Of a stretch of 64,000 nt of DNA, positions 36,750 through 60,882 are shown piece after piece (position 1 is the stretch's first letter; each line of letters starts with the position of its first letter). Under the pieces are notes generated by a model. The model was not told the DNA's origin. It searched no databases and saw only the letters and a program-made list of their open reading frames with translations. The stretch comes from Escherichia phage EC.P2. The stretch lies in the sequence record PQ631072.1. One strand, 5' to 3'. A program made the position numbers and the translations under genes.

Positions 36750-36753
36750 TTAA

Positions 36754-36775
36754 AAGGGGCGAAAGCCCCTTTATA
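36754..36775 (+). terminator. hairpin terminator (GAAA loop)
   Basis: AAGGGGC-GAAA-GCCCCTT hairpin; same 18-mer occurs in minus sense at 47620-47637. Confidence 0.5.
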
Positions 36776-38763: not shown

Positions 38764-38788
38764 AAGCCCCTTCGGGGGCTTATTATTT
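38764..38788 (+). terminator. rho-independent terminator (TTCG loop)
   Basis: AAGCCCC-TTCG-GGGGCTT hairpin followed by T-rich tract; same 18-mer in minus sense at 60865-60882. Confidence 0.6.
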
Positions 38789-38799
38789 AAGGAGATTAA

Positions 38800-41619
38800 A
38801 TGTATCCTATTCCTTTATTTATGTCAACAACATCAGCTTCAGTAGTAACAGCTACATCTATAACCACTTCCTCTATTGGTATTGCAATAGTTGGTAGTAA
38901 AAAGCAACTGACATACACAGTTTCACCGGAAGATGGTGCGTTATTTGATATAGCTTTTTCATCTTCAGATAATACCAAAATGGTTATAGATAATAACGGT
39001 ATGATGGAGTTTGTTGCTGAAGGCGGTTTTGATGCAATAATGACAGCTAAAAATAATTTAGGTGCTGTCTTAACTGATCAATCTGGTGGCTATGCTTCAG
39101 AATTAAGTGTGTACACTGAAAGTCTGTCTGCTATGGATGCAGGAACTACTCAACAATTGGTTGCTACAATCAGTCCAGAAGGTGCTAAAGACCTTCCAGA
39201 CATGGTAATTACGTACACCACAACAGATCCAGAAGTAGCTACTGTAAGCCCTACAGGATTAATAACTGCTCTTAAAGATGGCAGTTGCCGTATAGGTTGT
39301 ACTGCAACTTATCAAGGAACAGTGGTGGCCTCTGATAGTTCTTATTTAGGTGTTAATGCTATTCCTGTTATTTCTAATGTAACAGCCGTGGCAAACAGCT
39401 ATGGAGACATTCGTGTTGCTTGGGATGTAGCTGATCCGCTAGATGGTGATACTTATACTGTAGAAGTATTAGATTTAAGTAATAACAGTGTCCAGTGGAC
39501 TACAACAACCACGAATACTTACGCCTACTTTGATATCTCTGACTCTATTCCTCTTTATGGGTTTGCTCCAACATACCTTAAAATTAGCGTTAAGAGCACC
39601 AAAGCAGCAGCCGTTATCTTTAATAACTCAATAGCTACAGATGATTCATTCATTAAAGAAGTTATTGTCTTTGCTGGACAAGATAACGTAAATGCACACT
39701 TTACAGAACTATCTGGTGCAAATAAAGCAGCAATGAGTAGCACAACAACCCGTAACGCATATGCTACGCAACGTGGTTTAGCAAATGCTGAAGTTCTTCC
39801 GTTAAATACAGCTTCTGGATCATCAGCAGCAGATAAATATGCTGACGATAAAGCTGGAACAGGTACACCAGACAACTACTGGTATGATCTGGATAACACA
39901 GCAGATGGGCCATGCTTAACTAATTTTATCACTAAAGTCACACCTTATGCAAGTAAGGTTAAAGCAATTATTTGGGGACAAGGTGAAAATGATGCTGTAT
40001 CAGCATCTTCAACTGTTGCAGGTAGGTACAGTAACACTACACGTTACCATGATGCTACGATAGCCATCTTTGATAAGATGCGTACAATAGTTCCTGCTTC
40101 TCAAGCAAAAATTGTTTGGCAGATCCTAGGACGTTCTTATCTATATGGTGTAGAAGTTAATGGTGTAGATTGGCAGAAATACAGAAATGTACAAAGAACC
40201 ATCTCTACAGCACGTGACGATGTTATCATTGGTTCTTGGGTAGATGGTGCTGAACGTTACAGTGGCTATGCTTATGAAGAAGGTATTGATGGTCGTATCC
40301 ATTATATTTCTTCTGTATACCAGACAGCAGCTACAAAACTTGCTAAATCAGCAGCAGACGGTACAGACCTAACATCAACGTCACCTGTTTGGGTTGATAT
40401 GGCTGTTCCAACTGGAGCAACAGCTACTTCCCAGTCTAATCAAGATACAATTTTAGCATGGGATGCTCAAGGTTATAGTAAACACTACTTCCGTAATATT
40501 AACGTCTTAACAGCATCTGTATTAACTGAACAAACGCTTAATACGAACAGTTATACGTTTACCTATGCAGATCAAGTAGAACAATATGGTTTTGCAGCAG
40601 GTACTACGATATTTGATGTTGCATATTATGACGAAGCAAATGATGTGTTATCTCCTTTAGTACGTTTTAATGTTAGCGTTACAGCAGGAAAAGTAGAAGA
40701 TAAACCTGTCGTGATGGACTATGATTTGACACAAGAAACTCTTCCATCAGATGTTAAGGTTAATGGTGGGAACTCTTTTGCTCGTGCTTCTGGAGATACA
40801 CTTGTAGCCACTAACACCTTGGTTGCTCCGTTGGAGTATGTTGGCACTACCCCTGTAGGTAGACGTGTAACAGCTAACACAGCTACACAAATTTTTGTCA
40901 ACAACGCCTTAACAAGCGCAAGCCCGTGGGTAAAGACCAACTTAACTGTTGCATCTTCATCTGATAAATCTCCGGCTGGAACTACTGCTAATGTATTCAA
41001 ATTAACTCCGACTACAACTTCTGGTAGTCATATCTTAACTGCAACATATACTAACGCGTACAACATATCTGCCGGACGTAACTGGTCTGCCTCTGTTTTC
41101 TTGAAAGCGAACGGGATTACTAAGGCCAAACTAAGATTAAAAGCAGGGACTGAAGTTAATGAAGGTACTTTTGATTTAGCAGCAGGTACATTCACAGGAA
41201 GTGAAGCTAATATTATATCTATGGGCAACGGTTGGTATCGTGCTATTCTGCATAAAACAGGAATAGCCAAACAGTCCTCCATAAGTTTTGAAATAATTGC
41301 CTTGGATGCAACTGGTGCGGAGATTTTCGCTGGAGATGGTACTAGTAACCTTGCAGTTTGGTTGCCACAGCTTGAAGGTGCTTCTACAGGAGAAACATCA
41401 AAAGCTGGATCGCCTTATGTCTGCACATATCCTGGAAATTTAGGAGGAGTATCCTTCACTATACCAAGGAACGGACATACTGGTGTGGATGTTTACTATT
41501 CCAACGGAGACGTTGTTCGTGACGTATTCTCTGGTACGGCATCTACTTGGACAATAAACTACTCCAGCTTGTACGATTGGGGATCAGTCTTTATTACAGG
41601 TTTGAAATATTACGACTAA
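38800..41619 (+). CDS. tail fibre protein with Ig-like domains and SGNH/sialate-O-acetylesterase-like domain
   Basis: N-terminal Big_2-like repeats; FAGQDNVN and IWGQGENDA motifs about 110 aa apart resemble the GQSN / W-QGE-D esterase signature. Confidence 0.5.
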   Translation: MYPIPLFMSTTSASVVTATSITTSSIGIAIVGSKKQLTYTVSPEDGALFDIAFSSSDNTKMVIDNNGMMEFVAEGGFDAIMTAKNNLGAVLTDQSGGYASELSVYTESLSAMDAGTTQQLVATISPEGAKDLPDMVITYTTTDPEVATVSPTGLITALKDGSCRIGCTATYQGTVVASDSSYLGVNAIPVISNVTAVANSYGDIRVAWDVADPLDGDTYTVEVLDLSNNSVQWTTTTTNTYAYFDISDSIPLYGFAPTYLKISVKSTKAAAVIFNNSIATDDSFIKEVIVFAGQDNVNAHFTELSGANKAAMSSTTTRNAYATQRGLANAEVLPLNTASGSSAADKYADDKAGTGTPDNYWYDLDNTADGPCLTNFITKVTPYASKVKAIIWGQGENDAVSASSTVAGRYSNTTRYHDATIAIFDKMRTIVPASQAKIVWQILGRSYLYGVEVNGVDWQKYRNVQRTISTARDDVIIGSWVDGAERYSGYAYEEGIDGRIHYISSVYQTAATKLAKSAADGTDLTSTSPVWVDMAVPTGATATSQSNQDTILAWDAQGYSKHYFRNINVLTASVLTEQTLNTNSYTFTYADQVEQYGFAAGTTIFDVAYYDEANDVLSPLVRFNVSVTAGKVEDKPVVMDYDLTQETLPSDVKVNGGNSFARASGDTLVATNTLVAPLEYVGTTPVGRRVTANTATQIFVNNALTSASPWVKTNLTVASSSDKSPAGTTANVFKLTPTTTSGSHILTATYTNAYNISAGRNWSASVFLKANGITKAKLRLKAGTEVNEGTFDLAAGTFTGSEANIISMGNGWYRAILHKTGIAKQSSISFEIIALDATGAEIFAGDGTSNLAVWLPQLEGASTGETSKAGSPYVCTYPGNLGGVSFTIPRNGHTGVDVYYSNGDVVRDVFSGTASTWTINYSSLYDWGSVFITGLKYYD

Positions 41620-41623
41620 TAAA

Positions 41624-41652
41624 AAAGGAGCCATTAGGCTCCTTTTCTTTTA
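41624..41652. terminator. bidirectional rho-independent terminator at convergence of plus and minus transcription
   Basis: 9-bp hairpin AAAGGAGCC-ATTA-GGCTCCTTT flanked by A-run upstream and T-run downstream. Confidence 0.7.
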
Positions 41653-41654
41653 TC

Positions 41655-42086
41655 TTAATCAGTGAAAATTACGCTTACATCTTCTTTAGAAAAGAGTTTA
41701 TGATTTTCACCTTTTGTCTCAAGAGTTTCATACAGGTTAAGAAGTTCTGAAACATCTTTCTCTACTAGTTTCTTCAATGTTGCAATTTTCTGTTTGCGAT
41801 TCTTAATACGTTCAGCTACAACCTTACGTTGGTATCCGGCAGTACGATAACCTGAGAAAGTTACACCAGTGAGACTTGCAGTTACAGGATCGTAGTGACG
41901 TTCAATCTGAAATTTATTAAAAGGTACAGCGTCATCACGAATAATCTTACCGCCATTACTTACTTGACGAAGACCAGTAACTTGTTCCAGTCGTGCCATA
42001 GAAATCTTTGGAGACAGACCAGAGTCCAGGTTCATACCGTTGTTAATCAGTGCTTTCAGGGTGATTTTGCTGTTCAGTGTACTCAT
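41655..42086 (-). CDS. hypothetical protein (143 aa)
   Basis: Start at 42086 has GGAGGA RBS; overlaps 3' end of methyltransferase gene by 44 nt. Confidence 0.45.
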   Translation of the reverse strand: MSTLNSKITLKALINNGMNLDSGLSPKISMARLEQVTGLRQVSNGGKIIRDDAVPFNKFQIERHYDPVTASLTGVTFSGYRTAGYQRKVVAERIKNRKQKIATLKKLVEKDVSELLNLYETLETKGENHKLFSKEDVSVIFTD

Positions 42087-42774
42087 TTAGTCGTTCCTCC
42101 GCTTGTTTAAAAATATTTACATCGGCTTCACAGCCTAAGTATTCTCTACCTGTTAAAAGTGCCGCAACTTGTGTTGTTGCACTTCCAGAGAAGAAGTCTA
42201 AGACTACATCTTCTTCGTTGGTATGTATATTAATAAGGTCACAAAACAAAGTCAAGTGTTTTTGTGTTGGATGAAAACGATCTGCTCCTTGATAGATAGG
42301 ATACTCAAACACACCCTTATGATAGGAAGCATTGAAGGTTGGCTTCGAACCTTTAACACAGACAATAGCCATCTCTTTAGCGTTACTAAGGTAGTTAACA
42401 CCACTGTTGATGGGTACAGGGTTTGTTTTAATCCATTCAATAGTACGGAACATACGAAAACCAAGCGGTTCAAGGATTTCACGTAGCTCCTGGATCTTCC
42501 AGATATCATACCAAACTATGCAAGTACCACCTTTTCTAAGCACCCTATAGGCTTCTTTGAATACTTCTTTAAAGTAAGGAATATCTACAACATCCCAGTC
42601 ACCAAAGTTGTAAGATACACGGAATCTATCTGTATCTTTTCCAGTAGGCTCTCCAGATTGAAAATTTGTGTCACGAGAAATAGCATAGGGTGGGTCAGTA
42701 AGAATCAAATCTACACTATTGCTTTCGAGGGTTTGCAGGTAGTTTAATGCGGTGTTGTTTACAAATTCGCTCAT
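42043..42774 (-). CDS. DNA methyltransferase, beta-class (N6-adenine or N4-cytosine)
   Basis: Motif IV DPPY near N-terminus (LILTDPPYA) followed by motif I FFSGSATT near C-terminus; AAGGAG RBS. Confidence 0.85.
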   Translation of the reverse strand: MSEFVNNTALNYLQTLESNSVDLILTDPPYAISRDTNFQSGEPTGKDTDRFRVSYNFGDWDVVDIPYFKEVFKEAYRVLRKGGTCIVWYDIWKIQELREILEPLGFRMFRTIEWIKTNPVPINSGVNYLSNAKEMAIVCVKGSKPTFNASYHKGVFEYPIYQGADRFHPTQKHLTLFCDLINIHTNEEDVVLDFFSGSATTQVAALLTGREYLGCEADVNIFKQAEERLNEYTEQQNHPESTD

Positions 42775-42791
42775 TATATCTCCTTCAAAGA

Positions 42792-42811
42792 AAAGGAGCC
42801 GTTAGGCTCCT
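42792..42811 (-). terminator. hairpin terminator; near-copy of the 41624 hairpin
   Basis: AAGGAGCC-GTTA-GGCTCCTT; in minus sense followed by TTCTTTG. Confidence 0.5.
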
Positions 42812-42834
42812 TATATTCACACAATATTTAATTA

Positions 42835-43782
42835 TTAGAAACAGTGCAGGAAGTTTCGACCATATTGCAAACCAATAGGCGCAAATGGGATATCATCATC
42901 GAAATCTTGAACAACAGGTTCTGGTTCTTTCGGTGCTGGCTCTTTCTTCTCTACTTTTTTAGTTTCTTTCTTAACTTCTTGTACTGGAGTAGACATTCCA
43001 CGGATAGCAGCAGCTACTTTATCAGACAAAGCAAGAACTTCACGAGCAGCTTCAATAATCTCTTCTGCCGTTACAGTTTTACCTGTATGATCACGACAAG
43101 CGTTAAGAATTGCGTGTCCAACTGAAGCACCAAGATCATAATCAGTCACATCAACGCCACGATCTTTAGCAATTTCAGCTTTCAGAGTAACAGTTGCAGA
43201 TTGTACCACACCAGCCAAGTCGAAAGCATCACCTTTCACACCAGCACGTAGAAGCTCCAGAGCGCCGTTTACAGCGTGTCCTGTTTCAATCCCTACGGTA
43301 TCACGTTTTTTGTAGTTAGGCTTGCTACCGTCATTATTAGAGGGCTTATTTCCACCTTTTGAAGAGGATTGTGCTTGCTGAACACCTTCTGTTGAAAGAA
43401 TAGTGATTTTACCTTTAGAGGAGTTGTAGTATGTTTTGCCATTCCATTCAGAAGGTTTAACATCCATAGTTAGTTCTACACCTTTTTCGATAGTAACCCA
43501 CTTATCACCATCTTTAACTTGCAGGTTTTCATGTTCTGGGTGCAGTTTAACTTCACCTAGGCTAACCCAAACACCTTTATCATCAGCACCAGCACCTTTC
43601 TCTTTAATAAGCAGAGATGCTTTGTGAGTTGATTCAATTTTCTTATCTGGCTGACCTGCAACCTTAATATAAGAGACTTTCATTTCATCAAACTTATCTA
43701 GTTTGACATATTCGACAATACCTTCAGCCCAGAATGCTTCTTTTTTAGTACGACGGTCGATTTCAGAATTAATTACTGGCAT
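42835..43782 (-). CDS. DNA-binding protein with SSB-type acidic motif (DFDDDIPF) near C-terminus
   Basis: Motif VQDFDDDIPF matches the canonical SSB tail tip but is followed by 15 more residues; Gly/Asn/Ser-rich linker upstream. Confidence 0.45.
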   Translation of the reverse strand: MPVINSEIDRRTKKEAFWAEGIVEYVKLDKFDEMKVSYIKVAGQPDKKIESTHKASLLIKEKGAGADDKGVWVSLGEVKLHPEHENLQVKDGDKWVTIEKGVELTMDVKPSEWNGKTYYNSSKGKITILSTEGVQQAQSSSKGGNKPSNNDGSKPNYKKRDTVGIETGHAVNGALELLRAGVKGDAFDLAGVVQSATVTLKAEIAKDRGVDVTDYDLGASVGHAILNACRDHTGKTVTAEEIIEAAREVLALSDKVAAAIRGMSTPVQEVKKETKKVEKKEPAPKEPEPVVQDFDDDIPFAPIGLQYGRNFLHCF

Positions 43783-44240: not shown

Positions 44241-44834
44241 TTAAATCTTAAATTCTTCGTTGTTAAATGAATCCAGTGTACGTACTTCTGGTTCTTTGGG
44301 AATGAAAACGTCTTTTACAAAGCGGAACATAGGGAAACGTTCTGCCATTTTACGGACGTGTGCTTCTTTACCTGTGTATCGGTGATTAATAGTGCAAATA
44401 TTAGTTTTCAATGCAAATTCAAAATCTGGATGATATACATAATTTTGACCATCCCAGTAACACAGGCAAATAGCTACGTCAAAGTTCCATACGATTTCAC
44501 TGCGTACACCTTCTTCCATGATCATAAAGTTAAACTTAAGGTCTTTATAGTATGCTTCAAATACCCATTTCAAATGTGGTAGTTCGGCATAAGTGTGTTC
44601 TGTTTGCTTAGTAAGTTGTTTAACATTACGTGCACCAACACCCAACATCAAAAACTTCTCTACTAGCACGAGTGTATTGTGGTTAGGCATACGCAAGTAA
44701 ATGTCAATATCTTGTGCAGGTTTCTCTAATCGCCAATCACGTACAGCGCCGCCAGCTACAATTGCAAACGGATCTACCAGTTGGCACATACGTAATACTT
44801 CTAAAGCGCGTACTTTTTGATCTTCAATATTCAT
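44241..44834 (-). CDS. nucleotidyltransferase (Pol-beta superfamily; CCA-adding/poly(A) polymerase head-domain-like)
   Basis: N-terminal motif VAGGAVRD....DIDIYL matches the GGxVRD...DxD signature of tRNA nucleotidyltransferase heads. Confidence 0.5.
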   Translation of the reverse strand: MNIEDQKVRALEVLRMCQLVDPFAIVAGGAVRDWRLEKPAQDIDIYLRMPNHNTLVLVEKFLMLGVGARNVKQLTKQTEHTYAELPHLKWVFEAYYKDLKFNFMIMEEGVRSEIVWNFDVAICLCYWDGQNYVYHPDFEFALKTNICTINHRYTGKEAHVRKMAERFPMFRFVKDVFIPKEPEVRTLDSFNNEEFKI

Positions 44835-44971: not shown

Positions 44972-47551
44972 TCAGTGACAAGACGCCCATGAGTTACCAA
45001 CATCGTAACCAGCAGTGAGAGGTACATTAAGATTGTAATACTCACCAGCTTTATTAACAGCGATAGATGCTAATTCTCCAGCACGACTGTAGGCTGTAAA
45101 CCAACCACCTTTCGGAGATTCATGTACGTTAGCCCAAATCTTGCCAGTACGTTTCTCTTCCTCTTCTTTCCAGGCGTTAACTTTATCCAAACATTCTTTA
45201 TCAATTTTCTTTTGTTCTTCTGGATCATCAACTTGAGTCCAACCTAAAGATTCTTTAGAGAACCATTTAAAATGCACGAGATCACGAGTTACTTCAAGCT
45301 GTGCTTCATCGTGATATGCAATCATTTGTTGAACGAATGACTTATTTTTCCAGTCATCAACAAAAAAGTCAACAGCTAATCCTTCTTCTTCGATAAGATC
45401 ATCGTAGATAACCATTGCTCTTTTTGCACAAATAACACCACCACTCTGGAACAGAGAGTTAAGTATTGCGTGTGCAGATCGTGTAGGTACTTTCCTTCCA
45501 TCAATACCAAGAATGTATTTCTTACCTGTTTTAACCCAAAAGTCATGCAGACGTTCTTTAAGAAGCGCAAGAGGTTTTGCAGCTTCCCAGAAAGCATCGT
45601 ATACAAGCTGTCCTGTATACATATCACTACCAATAGTTTTTGCTACTTTTGCAGCTTGAGCACCATAAGTAATACCATACTTAACAGATTTAGCAGGGCT
45701 TCGTTCAAACTTACGACCAATAGTGTCAGAAATACGTCGAGCCATCATTGTATGAACATCATTAGGTTTTTCCAACAATAGAGCATTACAATATTCGTGT
45801 GGTTCCTGCTCGTACCGCCAACAGTAGTGTGATTCTATTTTTGCCTCAAGAGAATCAAAGTCATAACCAATTTGGAAGTATTTTGGAACTTCTACACCAA
45901 ATAAGTTACGCATTTCATATCCGTACAGAGATGTTACACGTGGGATATTTGCTACTAACCTATGTTTCATACGAGACGTAGCTGCATCACACGTTGCAGC
46001 AGGAGTTGGTATACGACCATCAGCCCTTACTGCCGCCAGATAACCTTTATCGTAATCCTCTTCATCTTCTTCCCAATCAGCGCCACCCCCTAGAATAGAG
46101 TTTCTACGATGTTTATACGTAAGATACTGCACAATCTGCGTAGCATAAGGAAACTTTTCACCTAGTGCTTCCAAGTTAGGACAAATATCCTTCTCTTGCC
46201 CTTTTGTAAAGGAAGGGTTAGTAAGCACTTTAACACCACGACCTTTAGCTTTAGCAATACGATCTCTTAGTTTCCATTCCAAAGTTTCTGGTGTGCACTC
46301 CAGATGATCACATCTGTCCTGGCAGAAGTTAGATGCTAATGTTTGATCAACATAGTCACGAATAGCTTTCTCCATTTGTGCTTCATCTTTCTTAATCTTA
46401 GTGCCAGATTTAAGAGTGATATCTTTATCTTTATATTCAGATGGACTCCAACCTAAACCAACTAACCAATTTTTAATATGTGTAGTGTCGTCTAAAGTAG
46501 CAGGTACTGTAGGATCACAAATAGGTTCTTCTGCTGGAATAGGTAGTTTAAACTCTTTACCTAATGCAAATAACCACCAACCATCTTCTTTTTGTACAAG
46601 TTCACCAGAATGTTTCTCTGCAAACTTTATCATGTTACTTGAAGGTTCACCATTCTTTTTAAACTGTAGTTTAGGTGGAATGAATGATTTCAAATAACCT
46701 TTAGTAGCAGGTTTAGGAGGTAGTACAGGTTCTGCCTCTAAACGACATGCTTCCATTCGAGCATCCAGATCACGAATATTATCTTCTGCTTGTTTCATAT
46801 TGAAAGCAAAGCCACGGTGCTCTTGACGTGTAATAATATCAGCTACACGTTGTTCTAAGTTAAATGGTTCAGACCACTTATTATAATCACCCCACTCTTC
46901 CATCAAATAACGGAACACTGCGGTGTTAGCTTTGTTATCGTAAATACAGTAATACAGCATATCTGCTGCAAATGTTCTAAATCTTTCAGTTTCAGGAATG
47001 TTTTTTCTAAAATCAATTTTAACATCCCCTCCAGCTTTCTTAGATAACTCTGCCAGACTATGACCACCGAAGCGATCAGGGTTTAGTGTCTTACTTAAGA
47101 TCATAGTATCACAAATTTCAATGTTACTATTACCCCAAGTATTGTACTTAATACTGTAGTTGAGTTTAAAAAATAATTTAATTGCCAGTAAGTCGAAGTT
47201 AATGATGTTGTGTCCAACTACTTTGGTAATTTTATAGTTTGAATTACCTTTAAATTTACCTGTTCCATTTACAAAATCAGGAAAATCTTTAAGAGGGAAA
47301 TGGGTATATTCTAAATGCTCATATTCCTCCAGTCGGTATTCATACTTTCCGTCAGTCTCAATATACGGACGACCATCGAAAAGATATTTATCACCATCAT
47401 GGAAAGCAATAATCTCTCCAGTATCATGACTTTCACACACAATACAGTGCATTGCAAAACTATCTTTTAAACGATATGGACTTGCCAAGTAATCTACACT
47501 TTCGTCATTAAGCAAGTTGTTACTTTCAATGTCGAAAGTAAAAGCTCCCAT
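44972..47551 (-). CDS. DNA polymerase, family A, with 3'-5' exonuclease domain
   Basis: Exo I motif FDIESNNL at N-terminus; motif B-like K..YGITYG; motif C-like YHDEAQ; AGGAGG RBS. Confidence 0.85.
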   Translation of the reverse strand: MGAFTFDIESNNLLNDESVDYLASPYRLKDSFAMHCIVCESHDTGEIIAFHDGDKYLFDGRPYIETDGKYEYRLEEYEHLEYTHFPLKDFPDFVNGTGKFKGNSNYKITKVVGHNIINFDLLAIKLFFKLNYSIKYNTWGNSNIEICDTMILSKTLNPDRFGGHSLAELSKKAGGDVKIDFRKNIPETERFRTFAADMLYYCIYDNKANTAVFRYLMEEWGDYNKWSEPFNLEQRVADIITRQEHRGFAFNMKQAEDNIRDLDARMEACRLEAEPVLPPKPATKGYLKSFIPPKLQFKKNGEPSSNMIKFAEKHSGELVQKEDGWWLFALGKEFKLPIPAEEPICDPTVPATLDDTTHIKNWLVGLGWSPSEYKDKDITLKSGTKIKKDEAQMEKAIRDYVDQTLASNFCQDRCDHLECTPETLEWKLRDRIAKAKGRGVKVLTNPSFTKGQEKDICPNLEALGEKFPYATQIVQYLTYKHRRNSILGGGADWEEDEEDYDKGYLAAVRADGRIPTPAATCDAATSRMKHRLVANIPRVTSLYGYEMRNLFGVEVPKYFQIGYDFDSLEAKIESHYCWRYEQEPHEYCNALLLEKPNDVHTMMARRISDTIGRKFERSPAKSVKYGITYGAQAAKVAKTIGSDMYTGQLVYDAFWEAAKPLALLKERLHDFWVKTGKKYILGIDGRKVPTRSAHAILNSLFQSGGVICAKRAMVIYDDLIEEEGLAVDFFVDDWKNKSFVQQMIAYHDEAQLEVTRDLVHFKWFSKESLGWTQVDDPEEQKKIDKECLDKVNAWKEEEEKRTGKIWANVHESPKGGWFTAYSRAGELASIAVNKAGEYYNLNVPLTAGYDVGNSWASCH

Positions 47552-47619: not shown

Positions 47620-47637
47620 AAGGGGCTTTCGCCCCTT
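47620..47637 (-). terminator. hairpin terminator downstream of minus-strand gene
   Basis: Minus-sense AAGGGGC-GAAA-GCCCCTT, identical to plus hairpin at 36754. Confidence 0.45.
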
Positions 47638-60864: not shown

Positions 60865-60882
60865 AAGCCCCCGAAGGGGCTT
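60865..60882 (-). terminator. hairpin terminator after terC-like gene
   Basis: Minus-sense AAGCCCC-TTCG-GGGGCTT, identical to plus hairpin at 38764. Confidence 0.5.

Follow-up and report, generated by a model that had tools for sequence, protein, structure and literature searches.

Organization of the locus

The 64,000-nt stretch of Escherichia phage EC.P2 analyzed here (the window; accession number PQ631072.1) is that of a Justusliebigvirus, a phi92-like E. coli myophage; it shares 99.1% identity with Escherichia phage SD2 and about 98% with PaulScherrer, Paula, and others, in which the same genes are annotated. An earlier note, made from the sequence alone, had pointed to a DNA methyltransferase gene and an overlapping ORF lying between two near-identical hairpins (H1 and H2), and the features of this region are as follows.

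38800 to 41619, plus strand: lateral tail-fibre/tail protein gene (939 aa) with a Big_2 domain and PHROG tail-protein matches, convergent on the two-gene module
41623 to 41646, both strands: H1, a putative bidirectional intrinsic terminator, AAAAGGAGCC-ATTA-GGCTCCTTTT, annotated on both strands in phage Paula
41655 to 42086, minus strand: phi92 gp154-like ORF (143 aa), conserved partner of the methyltransferase, with a winged-helix-like domain and a 43-residue helix predicted
42043 to 42774, minus strand: phi92 gp155-like orphan beta-class DNA methyltransferase gene (243 aa), with DPPY at residues 27 to 30 and matches to PF01555 and PHROG 67
42780 to 42785, minus strand: methyltransferase Shine-Dalgarno sequence (AAGGAG), read from the sequence, with a ribosome-binding site (RBS) annotated at the equivalent phi92 position
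42787 to 42812, minus strand: H2, a putative one-way intrinsic terminator or attenuator, AAGGAGCC-TAAC-GGCTCCTT followed by TTCTTT, annotated as a terminator in Paula
42835 to 43782, minus strand: phi92 gp156-like gene (315 aa), annotated as a single-stranded DNA-binding protein (SSB) gene in several records
42835 to 42863, minus strand: remaining 5' portion of an HNH homing-endonuclease gene, ATGGTCGAAACTTCCTGCA..., matching the start of an intact 165-aa HNH ORF in phage nieznany

In phi92 (Justusliebigvirus, Stephanstirmvirinae) the genes, their order, the overlap, and the flanking hairpins are all as in the window, with identical H1 and H2 sequences, and nothing material sets the two phages apart; they differ in the tail-fibre gene that abuts H1. 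The phi92 counterparts are gp155, a putative site-specific DNA methyltransferase, and gp154, a hypothetical protein. The region would form the 3' end of a leftward DNA-replication operon, in the order DNA polymerase, gp158, gp157, gp156, H2, methyltransferase gp155, gp154, and H1, with the tail-fibre operon meeting H1 from the opposite side. Deposited genomes of the genus already carry annotations for the genes and for both terminators, and the finding is an ordinary and largely known one.

The methyltransferase and its overlapping partner

The description of the first gene as a beta-class DPPY methyltransferase overlapping a 143-aa ORF holds in every particular. It has a full-length match to PF01555 (N6_N4_Mtase; profile positions 1 to 221 of 221) at 105.1 bits against a cut-off of 26.7 bits (E value, 6.7e-30), motif IV (DPPY, residues 27 to 30) precedes motif I (the FxGxG-type DFFSGSA near residue 195), which is the beta-class permutation, and the two genes overlap by 44 nt. 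Fifty-four phage records contain the protein at 99% identity or more. The nearest solved structure is 5hek/5hfj ("adenine specific DNA methyltransferase (DpnA)"; E value, 1e-28 over residues 19 to 238), which we take to be M1.HpyAVI of Helicobacter; the two enzymes are alike in their small size (∼240 aa), in the placing of DPPY before motif I, and in matching over their full length, but the similarity is only moderate, so that the specificity of the Helicobacter enzyme is not transferable to gp155. The presence of DPPY rather than SPPY points to N6-adenine, which gp155 is predicted probably to modify. The consistent coupling of the gp155 gene to an overlapping gp154-family ORF sets it apart from the characterized beta-class enzymes, for which we know of no description of such a partner.

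The gp154 ORF product is 98.6% identical to the phi92 copy, and its structure model (pLDDT 95) is a small alpha/beta winged-helix-like domain followed by a long helix. The best structural matches of the model are to winged-helix and coiled-coil proteins, all of them weak, and the protein is likely to bind DNA. The methyltransferase gene and an overlapping gp154 homologue are found together in the relatives L007, L008, L009/L010/L011, and L047, and the same pair is present in other genomic neighbourhoods in L045, L046, L048, and L049, whereas Pseudoalteromonas phage J2-1 has a gp154 homologue without a methyltransferase. The overlapping pair recurs in unrelated phages where no hairpins flank it. 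It is therefore likely that gp154 is a functional partner of the enzyme, and the cargo between the hairpins would be a two-gene module of an orphan beta-class enzyme translationally coupled to a conserved small protein. A more specific proposal, which we offer tentatively and regard as possible rather than probable, is that the gp154 family is an obligate DNA-targeting or regulatory subunit of widespread small phage beta-class methyltransferases and, secondarily, that the module was lost from Phapecoctavirus by a hairpin-to-hairpin deletion.

The order of a methyltransferase gene followed by a small overlapping ORF is also the layout of many type II systems, and the module could be read as a true restriction-modification system with either gp154 or an ancestrally adjacent HNH protein as the endonuclease. 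HNH genes do lie directly upstream of the methyltransferase gene in L008 and L011, and small HNH restriction enzymes exist. However, gp154 is the only ORF adjacent to the methyltransferase gene, where a type II system would have its cognate endonuclease; a nuclease-like structural match was sought with the gp154 model and none was found, the weak winged-helix and coiled-coil matches being the best; and the invariant residues (G23, S25, R50, D52, F77, and G79) form no PD-(D/E)XK, HNH, or GIY-YIG motif. The occurrence of the gp154 homologue alone in J2-1 also argues against this reading, as does the distribution of the HNH gene, which is present without a methyltransferase in nieznany, absent from L007, L009, and L047, and decayed in all Justusliebigvirus genomes, as a homing endonuclease would be. 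We therefore regard a restriction-modification system as very improbable and agree with the earlier note that the methyltransferase has no visible endonuclease partner, although gp154 could conceivably be an endonuclease of a novel nuclease fold.

The same note had suggested that the orphan enzyme protects phage DNA from host restriction, and we treat this anti-restriction role as a guess. Literature searches for methylome or restriction data on this phi92-like methyltransferase found none. In the BASEL study (PMC8594841), phi92-like phages were "exceptionally susceptible" to restriction-modification systems, so any protection by gp155 against the enzymes of that study would have to be narrow or nonexistent.

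Sequence and setting of the hairpins

The stem AAGGAGCC-N4-GGCTCCTT occurs exactly twice in the window, at 41625 to 41644 (loop ATTA) and 42793 to 42812 (loop GTTA), bracketing the two genes as the earlier note had described. The copies form a 22-nt direct repeat with 21 of 22 positions identical and the single mismatch in the loop, and the H1 stem extends to 10 bp (AAAAGGAGCC/GGCTCCTTTT, 41623 to 41646). Dinucleotide shuffles give an expected count of 0.01, a null that exaggerates the significance of the shared stem because terminators are a constrained sequence class. H1 and H2 are the top two hits of a terminator scan and fold stably; an Rfam search at the hairpins gave no family at threshold and only sub-threshold matches to small RNA terminators. 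Other hairpins of the window also share stems: the one at 38764 is the exact reverse complement of the one at 60865, and the stem AAGGGGC/GCCCCTT is common to those at 36753 and 47620. The form AAGGAGCC-N4-GGCTCCTTTTCTTT is present in 30 IMG/VR stretches, most of them on unrelated contigs. Since the stem recurs in about 30 contigs and other terminators of the window share stems, stem identity is not a feature of the cassette; AAGGAGCC-loop-GGCTCC-TTTTCTTT appears to be a common terminator design in enterobacterial phages, which would explain why the two hairpins look alike.

H1 starts 3 nt past the tail-fibre stop codon and ends 8 nt short of the gp154 stop codon, and it has a T-tract on both strands (TTTTCTTTT on the plus strand and TTTTTTATT on the minus strand). 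The symmetry of its upstream A-tract and downstream T-tract is that of bidirectional terminators between convergent operons, and H1 is predicted to be a rho-independent terminator ending both operons. Orthologous hairpins with other stems and the same flanks (TAATAAAAAAGG and CCTTTTCTTTTAT) lie at this site in Schickermooser, nieznany, L007, L008, L009, and L047; the stems include GGAGCC in the window, GGGAACC in Schickermooser and nieznany, GGGAGCC in L009, and GGGAGCCTC/GAGGTTCCC in L007. The H1 loop is polymorphic and includes an inverted form (ATTA and TAAT). The adjacent gene is annotated as a tail fibre in PaulScherrer and Paula and its 3' part is variable among genus members, with homology to other members restarting at window position 41575, 41606, or 41622, so placed that H1 would be the first conserved sequence beyond an exchangeable tail-fibre 3' end.

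A similar hairpin occurs in Tlsvirus (Drexlerviridae), for example in Citrobacter phage CF1, where TAATAAAAAAGGAGCC-loop-GGCTCCTTTTCTTTTATC agrees with H1 in 36 of 38 nt and has a convergent tail-fibre gene on one side and, on the other, an SSB gene whose product ends in DFDDDIPF. Tlsvirus belongs to an unrelated family, neither the fibre nor the body of the SSB is similar to that of the window, and there is no methyltransferase module; transfer from Tlsvirus was considered and set aside, as the hairpin and the DFDDDIPF tip match while the proteins otherwise do not, though the two junctions could still share an ancestor.

H2 lies 22 nt past the gp156 stop codon. Its U-run, UUUUCUUU with the last stem bases counted, is interrupted, and the plus strand lacks a T-tract. 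It is followed closely by the methyltransferase RBS, the AAGGAG being 7 nt past the H2 stem and 5 nt upstream of the ATG. Both hairpins share with intrinsic terminators a GC-rich stem, a tetraloop, a U-run, and a location after a stop codon, and H2 differs from typical examples in its interrupted U-run and its unusual nearness to the RBS of the next gene. The hairpins at the H2 site are AAGGGGC-TTCG in L007, GGGGCTGCTTGTAGCCCC in L009 and L011, and GGGGC-TGAAA-GCCCC in L047, followed in each by a T-run and then an RBS. At both sites, then, the structure is kept and the stem sequence changed (Schickermooser, nieznany, L007, L008, L009, and L047), as is expected of terminators. H2 is predicted to be a rho-independent terminator on the minus strand only, directly behind the abundantly needed gp156, and its position between gp156 and the methyltransferase RBS suggests that only read-through transcripts reach gp155 and gp154; as an attenuator it would hold both at a low level. 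With its 8-bp stem and interrupted U-run, H2 could also be a weak terminator or simply an mRNA-stabilizing hairpin.

The closeness of H2 to the RBS raises the alternative that it acts mainly in the 5' leader of the methyltransferase mRNA, as a stabilizer or in translational control, with a promoter inside the HNH remnant. H2 is invariant in the eight genus-member sequences read, and the 34-nt stretch of H2, T-tract, and RBS is identical at all 34 positions between the window and L008, where the cassette overall is 66% identical; the L008 T-run is able to pair with the RBS, whereas no such fold is predicted for the window. A sigma-70-like match is present on the minus strand at 42859 to 42831 (TCGAAA-17-AATAAT, 9 of 12 positions), but it is weak, promoter-like matches in the region are no commoner than in shuffles (44 versus 40.7), and a promoter between gp156 and the methyltransferase gene was rejected as a candidate. 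A hairpin and U-run directly after a promoter would also abort its own transcript, and the hairpins of the relatives differ yet invariably combine a T-run with a location past a stop codon, the mark of a terminator. A leader role is accordingly improbable, and termination at both sites, with attenuation at H2, is the reading that we infer.

A decayed HNH gene beside H2

The gp156 protein has no Pfam or PDB sequence match and carries an SSB-type tip, DFDDDIPF, at residues 293 to 300, followed by a 15-aa extension created by insertion of an HNH gene. The window retains 29 nt of the start of the nieznany HNH gene together with an identical 15-aa extension, and the spacer at 42813 to 42834 may hold a 3' remnant, as about 14 of 21 nt resemble the end of the L008 HNH gene, a weak likeness judged by eye. 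The HNH gene is present in one member and absent from the other of three near-identical pairs (nieznany/Schickermooser, L011/L009, and L008/L047, the former of each having it). Free-standing HNH homing endonucleases are found in large lytic phages, as in T4-type intronless homing, and the genes here resemble them in their presence or absence at the precise 3' end of gp156; unlike intact homing genes, that of the window is decayed to 29 nt of its start, with perhaps another 20 nt or so from its 3' end.

H2 adjoins the HNH remnant and probably came as the terminator of the HNH gene. L008, with the HNH gene, has an AAGGAGCC-TAAC hairpin, and L047, 97.7% identical and without it, has a different hairpin there; this origin of H2 thus draws on one genome pair and short remnants. 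The HNH gene of L011 uses a different hairpin, already resident there, and strong selection on a regulatory element could instead account for the 34 identical nt that the window and L008 share in the H2 region. By way of the HNH insertion, H1 and H2 may also be paralogous. An H2'-like sequence within the N-terminal coding region of the HNH gene (GGGGTTGAAAA(A/G)CC) is probably a coincidence of the codons for a CxxCGxxKP zinc finger and was not used.

Presence and absence of the module

The earlier note had raised two explanations for the bracketing, reuse of a terminator and a mobile or recombination-prone cassette. The hairpins might in the latter case be recombination sites at which the segment is gained or lost by recombination, replication slippage, or a hairpin-specific enzyme. 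The segment proves to be variably present among relatives: the sister genus Phapecoctavirus lacks all of it and has the tail-fibre gene, exactly one hairpin with H1-type flanks, and then directly gp156, so that the boundaries of the indel coincide with the hairpins, which may therefore have had a part in the deletion or insertion itself. Of five roughly equidistant lineages, four have the cassette, so that Phapecoctavirus could plausibly have lost it through a deletion from hairpin to hairpin; the fact that tail-fibre exchange has its breakpoint at H1 and the inverted form of the H1 loop could be counted on the same side.

Within Justusliebigvirus, however, no such variation is seen, and all 55 records keep the two-gene segment despite the 21/22-nt direct repeat. 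The gene order is the same in the diverged relatives L007, L008, L009, and L047, yet in each the two flanking hairpins are unlike each other, and module copies elsewhere (L045, L046, and L049) have no GC hairpin on at least one side, which removes near-identical hairpins as a property of the cassette. The neighbouring ORFs include no recombinase or transposase, and the flanks have no target-site duplication beyond the hairpins themselves. The GC content of the cassette is the same as that of its flanks, and a foreign composition was set aside. Ordinary illegitimate recombination joining gene boundaries would be expected to leave just one past indel at intergenic terminators. The cassette is thus unlikely to be mobile or unstable; as judged from these comparisons, the hairpins are not mobilizing sites and do not move the genes. 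Terminator reuse is favoured by the annotation in Paula, the differing stems in relatives, and the reuse of stems within the window and in IMG/VR, and we consider it probable that the locus as a whole is a known phi92-type two-gene module between ordinary terminators. A literature search on terminators as module boundaries returned nothing relevant.

Implications

The bracketing of the genes by like hairpins matters little as first stated, since the likeness has an ordinary explanation, but three by-products may be of use in phage biology. Tail-fibre alleles are swapped at a boundary marked by H1, a point that bears on engineering the host range of these broad-host-range phages. A homing HNH gene has a hotspot at the 3' end of gp156, and its insertion has left all Justusliebigvirus members with the DFDDDIPF tip buried under a 15-residue extension. 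If the gp154 family does act as an obligate subunit, the "orphan" methyltransferase would consist of two components, with a winged-helix/coiled-coil protein setting its specificity or timing. The near-constant pairing of the methyltransferase with the gp154 family across unrelated phages is a concrete lead on the function of an uncharacterized family.

Organization of the methyltransferase region

In EC.P2, the sequence of 41300-43200 and the ORF list show three minus-strand genes, which correspond to phi92 gp156, gp155 and gp154; of these, gp155 is a putative site-specific DNA methyltransferase and gp154 is hypothetical. A tail-fibre gene converges on them, and hairpins H1 and H2 bracket the methyltransferase and gp154:

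38800-41619, plus strand, tail-fibre ORF, 939 aa, convergent on the three minus-strand genes
41623-41646, hairpin H1
41655-42086, minus strand, gp154-like ORF, 143 aa, 44-nt overlap with the 243-aa ORF
42043-42774, minus strand, methyltransferase ORF, 243 aa
42787-42812, hairpin H2 including its T-tract
42835-43782, minus strand, gp156-like ORF, 315 aa

The closest genome to the region is Escherichia phage SD2 (99.1% identity), and PaulScherrer (BASEL Bas60), Paula, PHB05, alia and others are ~98% identical to it; the phages named are Justusliebigvirus, phi92-like myophages of the Stephanstirmvirinae. Terminators at the H1 and H2 positions are already in the Paula GenBank record, with that at H1 on both strands, and the feature is ordinary and largely annotated already: an orphan methyltransferase with a partner gene, flanked by a predicted bidirectional terminator on one side and a predicted terminator inside the operon on the other.

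The DNA polymerase of the window (44972-47551, minus strand, 859 aa) is uninterrupted; PaulScherrer (98.8% identical) has one that is annotated to contain an intein, and a further ORF lies between it and the gp158 homologue (L002 7461-8901). The gp158-like protein (44241-44834, minus strand) has weak matches to the PF01743 poly(A) polymerase/nucleotidyltransferase head domain and to PHROG nucleotidyltransferase families, and a weak Gad2 (PF26128) signal is seen in the homologues of its relatives.

H1 and H2 as predicted terminators

The pattern AAGGAGCC-N4-GGCTCCTT occurs at exactly two sites in the window, 41625-41644 (loop ATTA) and 42793-42812 (loop GTTA), with 0.01 expected by shuffles, and the 243-aa protein has a full-length PF01555 DNA methylase match (E 6.7e-30) and has DPPY (residues 27-30) before its SAM motif, the order of the beta class; together these confirm the earlier note's observation of a hairpin pair around a beta-class DPPY methyltransferase. 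In a scan of 14 kb, H1 and H2 outscored every other terminator-like site. The 10-bp stem of H1 has an A-tract 5' and a T-tract 3' so that either strand has the features of a terminator; its fold (plus strand, -15.7 kcal/mol; minus strand, -19.6 kcal/mol) is matched by no shuffle, and it runs from 3 nt past the tail-fibre stop to 8 nt short of the gp154 stop. H2 has an 8-bp stem with a U-run on the minus strand only (UUUUCUUU), and lies 22 nt past the gp156 stop and 7 nt ahead of the methyltransferase Shine-Dalgarno. No Rfam family matches the hairpins at threshold, and the sub-threshold matches are terminator portions of sRNAs. On sequence criteria, H1 and H2 are predicted terminators.

Terminators of this genome share one template and their stems recur: hairpins 38764-38781 and 60865-60882 are exact reverse complements (AAGCCCCTTCGGGGGCTT), and 36753-36772 and 47620-47637 have a common stem, AAGGGGC/GCCCCTT. 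The exact 22 specified bases of AAGGAGCC-N4-GGCTCCTTTTCTTT are present in 30 IMG/VR stretches, with a variety of loops and, for the most part, unrelated flanks. Such reuse means that the shuffle expectation overstates the surprise of the pair, and it supports terminator reuse, which had been offered as one explanation of the bracketing.

Four diverged metagenomic relatives (loci L007, L009/L010/L011, L047 and L008) keep the gene order DNA polymerase, gp158, gp157, gp156, methyltransferase, gp154 and convergent fibre, with gp156 proteins 57-77% identical to that of the window, about as distant as the sister genus Phapecoctavirus. All four have a hairpin and T-run at both positions, with differing stems, and this conservation of structure with changing stem sequence is behavior typical of terminators. 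Compared with these relatives, likeness between the two flanking hairpins is confined to the phi92 clade.

Hairpins in the diverged relatives (locus; upstream of methyltransferase; downstream of gp154)
L007; AAGGGGC-TTCG-GCCCCTT; GGGAGCCTC-TTGC-GAGGTTCCC
L009, L011; GGGGCTGCTTGTAGCCCC; GGGAGCC-AAT-GGCTCCC
L047; GGGGC-TGAAA-GCCCC; GGGAACCTC-GAAA-GAGGCTCCC
L008; AAGGAGCC-TAAC-GGCTCCTT; GGGAACCTC-GAAA-GAGGCTCCC

Retention of the cassette

Phapecoctavirus genomes (UP17, ESCO13, Schickermooser, phAPEC8_ev052 and others) pass from the tail-fibre end to gp156 within about 870 bp, and in the one of these read, Schickermooser, a single hairpin lies between fibre and gp156, with the methyltransferase and gp154 absent. 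By tblastn, only 55 records, every one from the phi92 group, have the two genes at 95% identity or above, and the next best phage matches are no more than 35% identical to the methyltransferase and 31% to gp154. Of five roughly equidistant lineages, four have the cassette; loss in Phapecoctavirus is thus no less likely than gain, and deletion from one terminator hairpin to the other would be a reasonable mechanism for it. Its retention in 55/55 Justusliebigvirus records, in spite of a 21/22-nt direct repeat, argues for selection to keep it and against ongoing mobility; its GC content does not differ from that of the flanks. The hairpin-bounded segment is thus variable in part: it is absent from Phapecoctavirus, as read in Schickermooser, and kept within Justusliebigvirus. 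A mobile cassette is unsupported beyond one ancient indel with edges at terminators, and this retention and the unlike flanking hairpins of the relatives speak against it.

An HNH remnant and a plausible origin of H2

The gp156 protein, annotated as SSB in several records, ends in the window with DFDDDIPF-APIGLQYGRNFLHCF, in which an SSB-type tip (residues 293-300) is followed by 15 further residues (42835-42882, minus strand). The gp156 proteins of Schickermooser, L007, L009 and L047, relatives that lack an HNH insertion, stop at the (D/E)DIPF tip, and the identical extension is present in Phapecoctavirus nieznany, where the first codons of an intact HNH endonuclease gene (165 aa), inserted between gp156 and H1, overlap it. 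The window keeps 29 nt of a nieznany-type HNH start (ATGGTCGAAACTTCCTGCA..., 42863-42835, minus strand), then a short spacer and H2. HNH genes, intact or decaying, are at the same site in L004 (3080-3574), L011 (418-846) and L008 (about 270-712), and the gene is present or absent at exactly the gp156 3' site in three near-identical genome pairs: nieznany (present) and Schickermooser (absent), with flanks 99% and 97% identical; L011 (present) and L009 (absent), 99.9% and 94%; and L008 (present) and L047 (absent), 97.7% and 90%. Presence or absence at one exact site is homing-endonuclease behavior.

L008, with the HNH gene, has the AAGGAGCC-TAAC hairpin and L047, without it, has another; the 34 nt of H2, T-run and RBS are identical in the window and L008, whose cassettes are 66% identical overall. 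It is plausible, though on short remnants and one genome pair, that H2 arrived with an HNH gene for which it served as terminator and which would have decayed afterwards in the Justusliebigvirus ancestor; the L011 HNH gene, by contrast, is served by the resident hairpin. A by-product worth noting is this HNH homing hotspot, whose traces are a scar and a gp156 extended at its C terminus, in which the buried DFDDDIPF tip might change partner binding.

H1 at the boundary of the tail-fibre module

Justusliebigvirus members fall into classes in which homology to the window starts at 41575, 41606 or 41622, and H1 is directly preceded by one of three tail-fibre 3' ends, which makes it the first conserved sequence past the exchangeable fibre module. 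The H1 stem is invariant in the genus and the loop (41633-41636) is variable; across comparison loci that include L024, L025 and L042-L044, it is ATTA in six (window, Paula, PaulScherrer, EC_OE_11, PD114 and phi92), TATT in one genome, PD06, and TAAT in one IMG/VR contig. H2 is invariant in 8/8 sequences read. TAAT is an inversion of the loop, the expected product of template switching within a palindrome.

In Tlsvirus phages such as Citrobacter phage CF1 (L005 3001-3038), 38 nt match H1 plus flanks at 94.7% identity and lie at a tail-fibre/SSB junction, where a convergent tail fibre is followed by an SSB ending in DFDDDIPF, like the gp156 tip, although the proteins are otherwise unrelated; the junction is thus built alike in a phage family unrelated to that of the window. 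The 38-nt sequence also occurs in some 55 further records, from siphophages of roughly 50 kb, and jumbo phage EJP2 has a 35-nt match.

The methyltransferase-gp154 pair

Among solved structures, PDB 5hek/5hfj is closest to the methyltransferase (E 1e-28); its deposited name is 'adenine specific DNA methyltransferase (DpnA)', and its specificity is not transferable. The methyltransferase has more than 4000 metagenomic homologues at E below 1e-20. The gp154 family is small, PHROG 20244 (28 representative clusters), with invariant residues G23, S25, R50, D52, F77 and G79. Seven separate stretches of the 1452-aa protein P0019 match gp154 residues 38-104, which suggests that tandem copies of the conserved core can make up a repeat domain.

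In all syntenic relatives, a gp154 homologue lies directly downstream of a PF01555 methyltransferase and overlaps it, and the overlapping pair is also present in four unrelated contexts in large phages beside nucleotide-metabolism genes: L045 5001-6111 (PhoH, RNR), L046 5001-6105 (ThyA, DHFR, RNR), L048 2304-3414 (NT5C, Thy1) and L049 2316-3423 (ThyA, DHFR). Flanking GC hairpins are missing on at least one side in L045, L046 and L049, and the L048 pair is flanked by unrelated hairpins without T-runs; Pseudoalteromonas phage J2-1 has a gp154 homologue without an adjacent methyltransferase. Pairing in both syntenic and unrelated contexts, itself a by-product worth noting, therefore marks the two genes as a conserved unit and the hairpins as local punctuation.

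The default reading of an orphan phage methyltransferase is self-methylation against restriction. No methylome or genetic data on this gene were found in the literature, and the description of phage BME3 goes no further than a list of four putative methyltransferases (PMC12210895). Phi92-like phages are 'exceptionally susceptible' to restriction-modification in the BASEL study (PMC8594841); any anti-restriction protection by the putative methyltransferase may be narrow, and the enzyme may have other roles.
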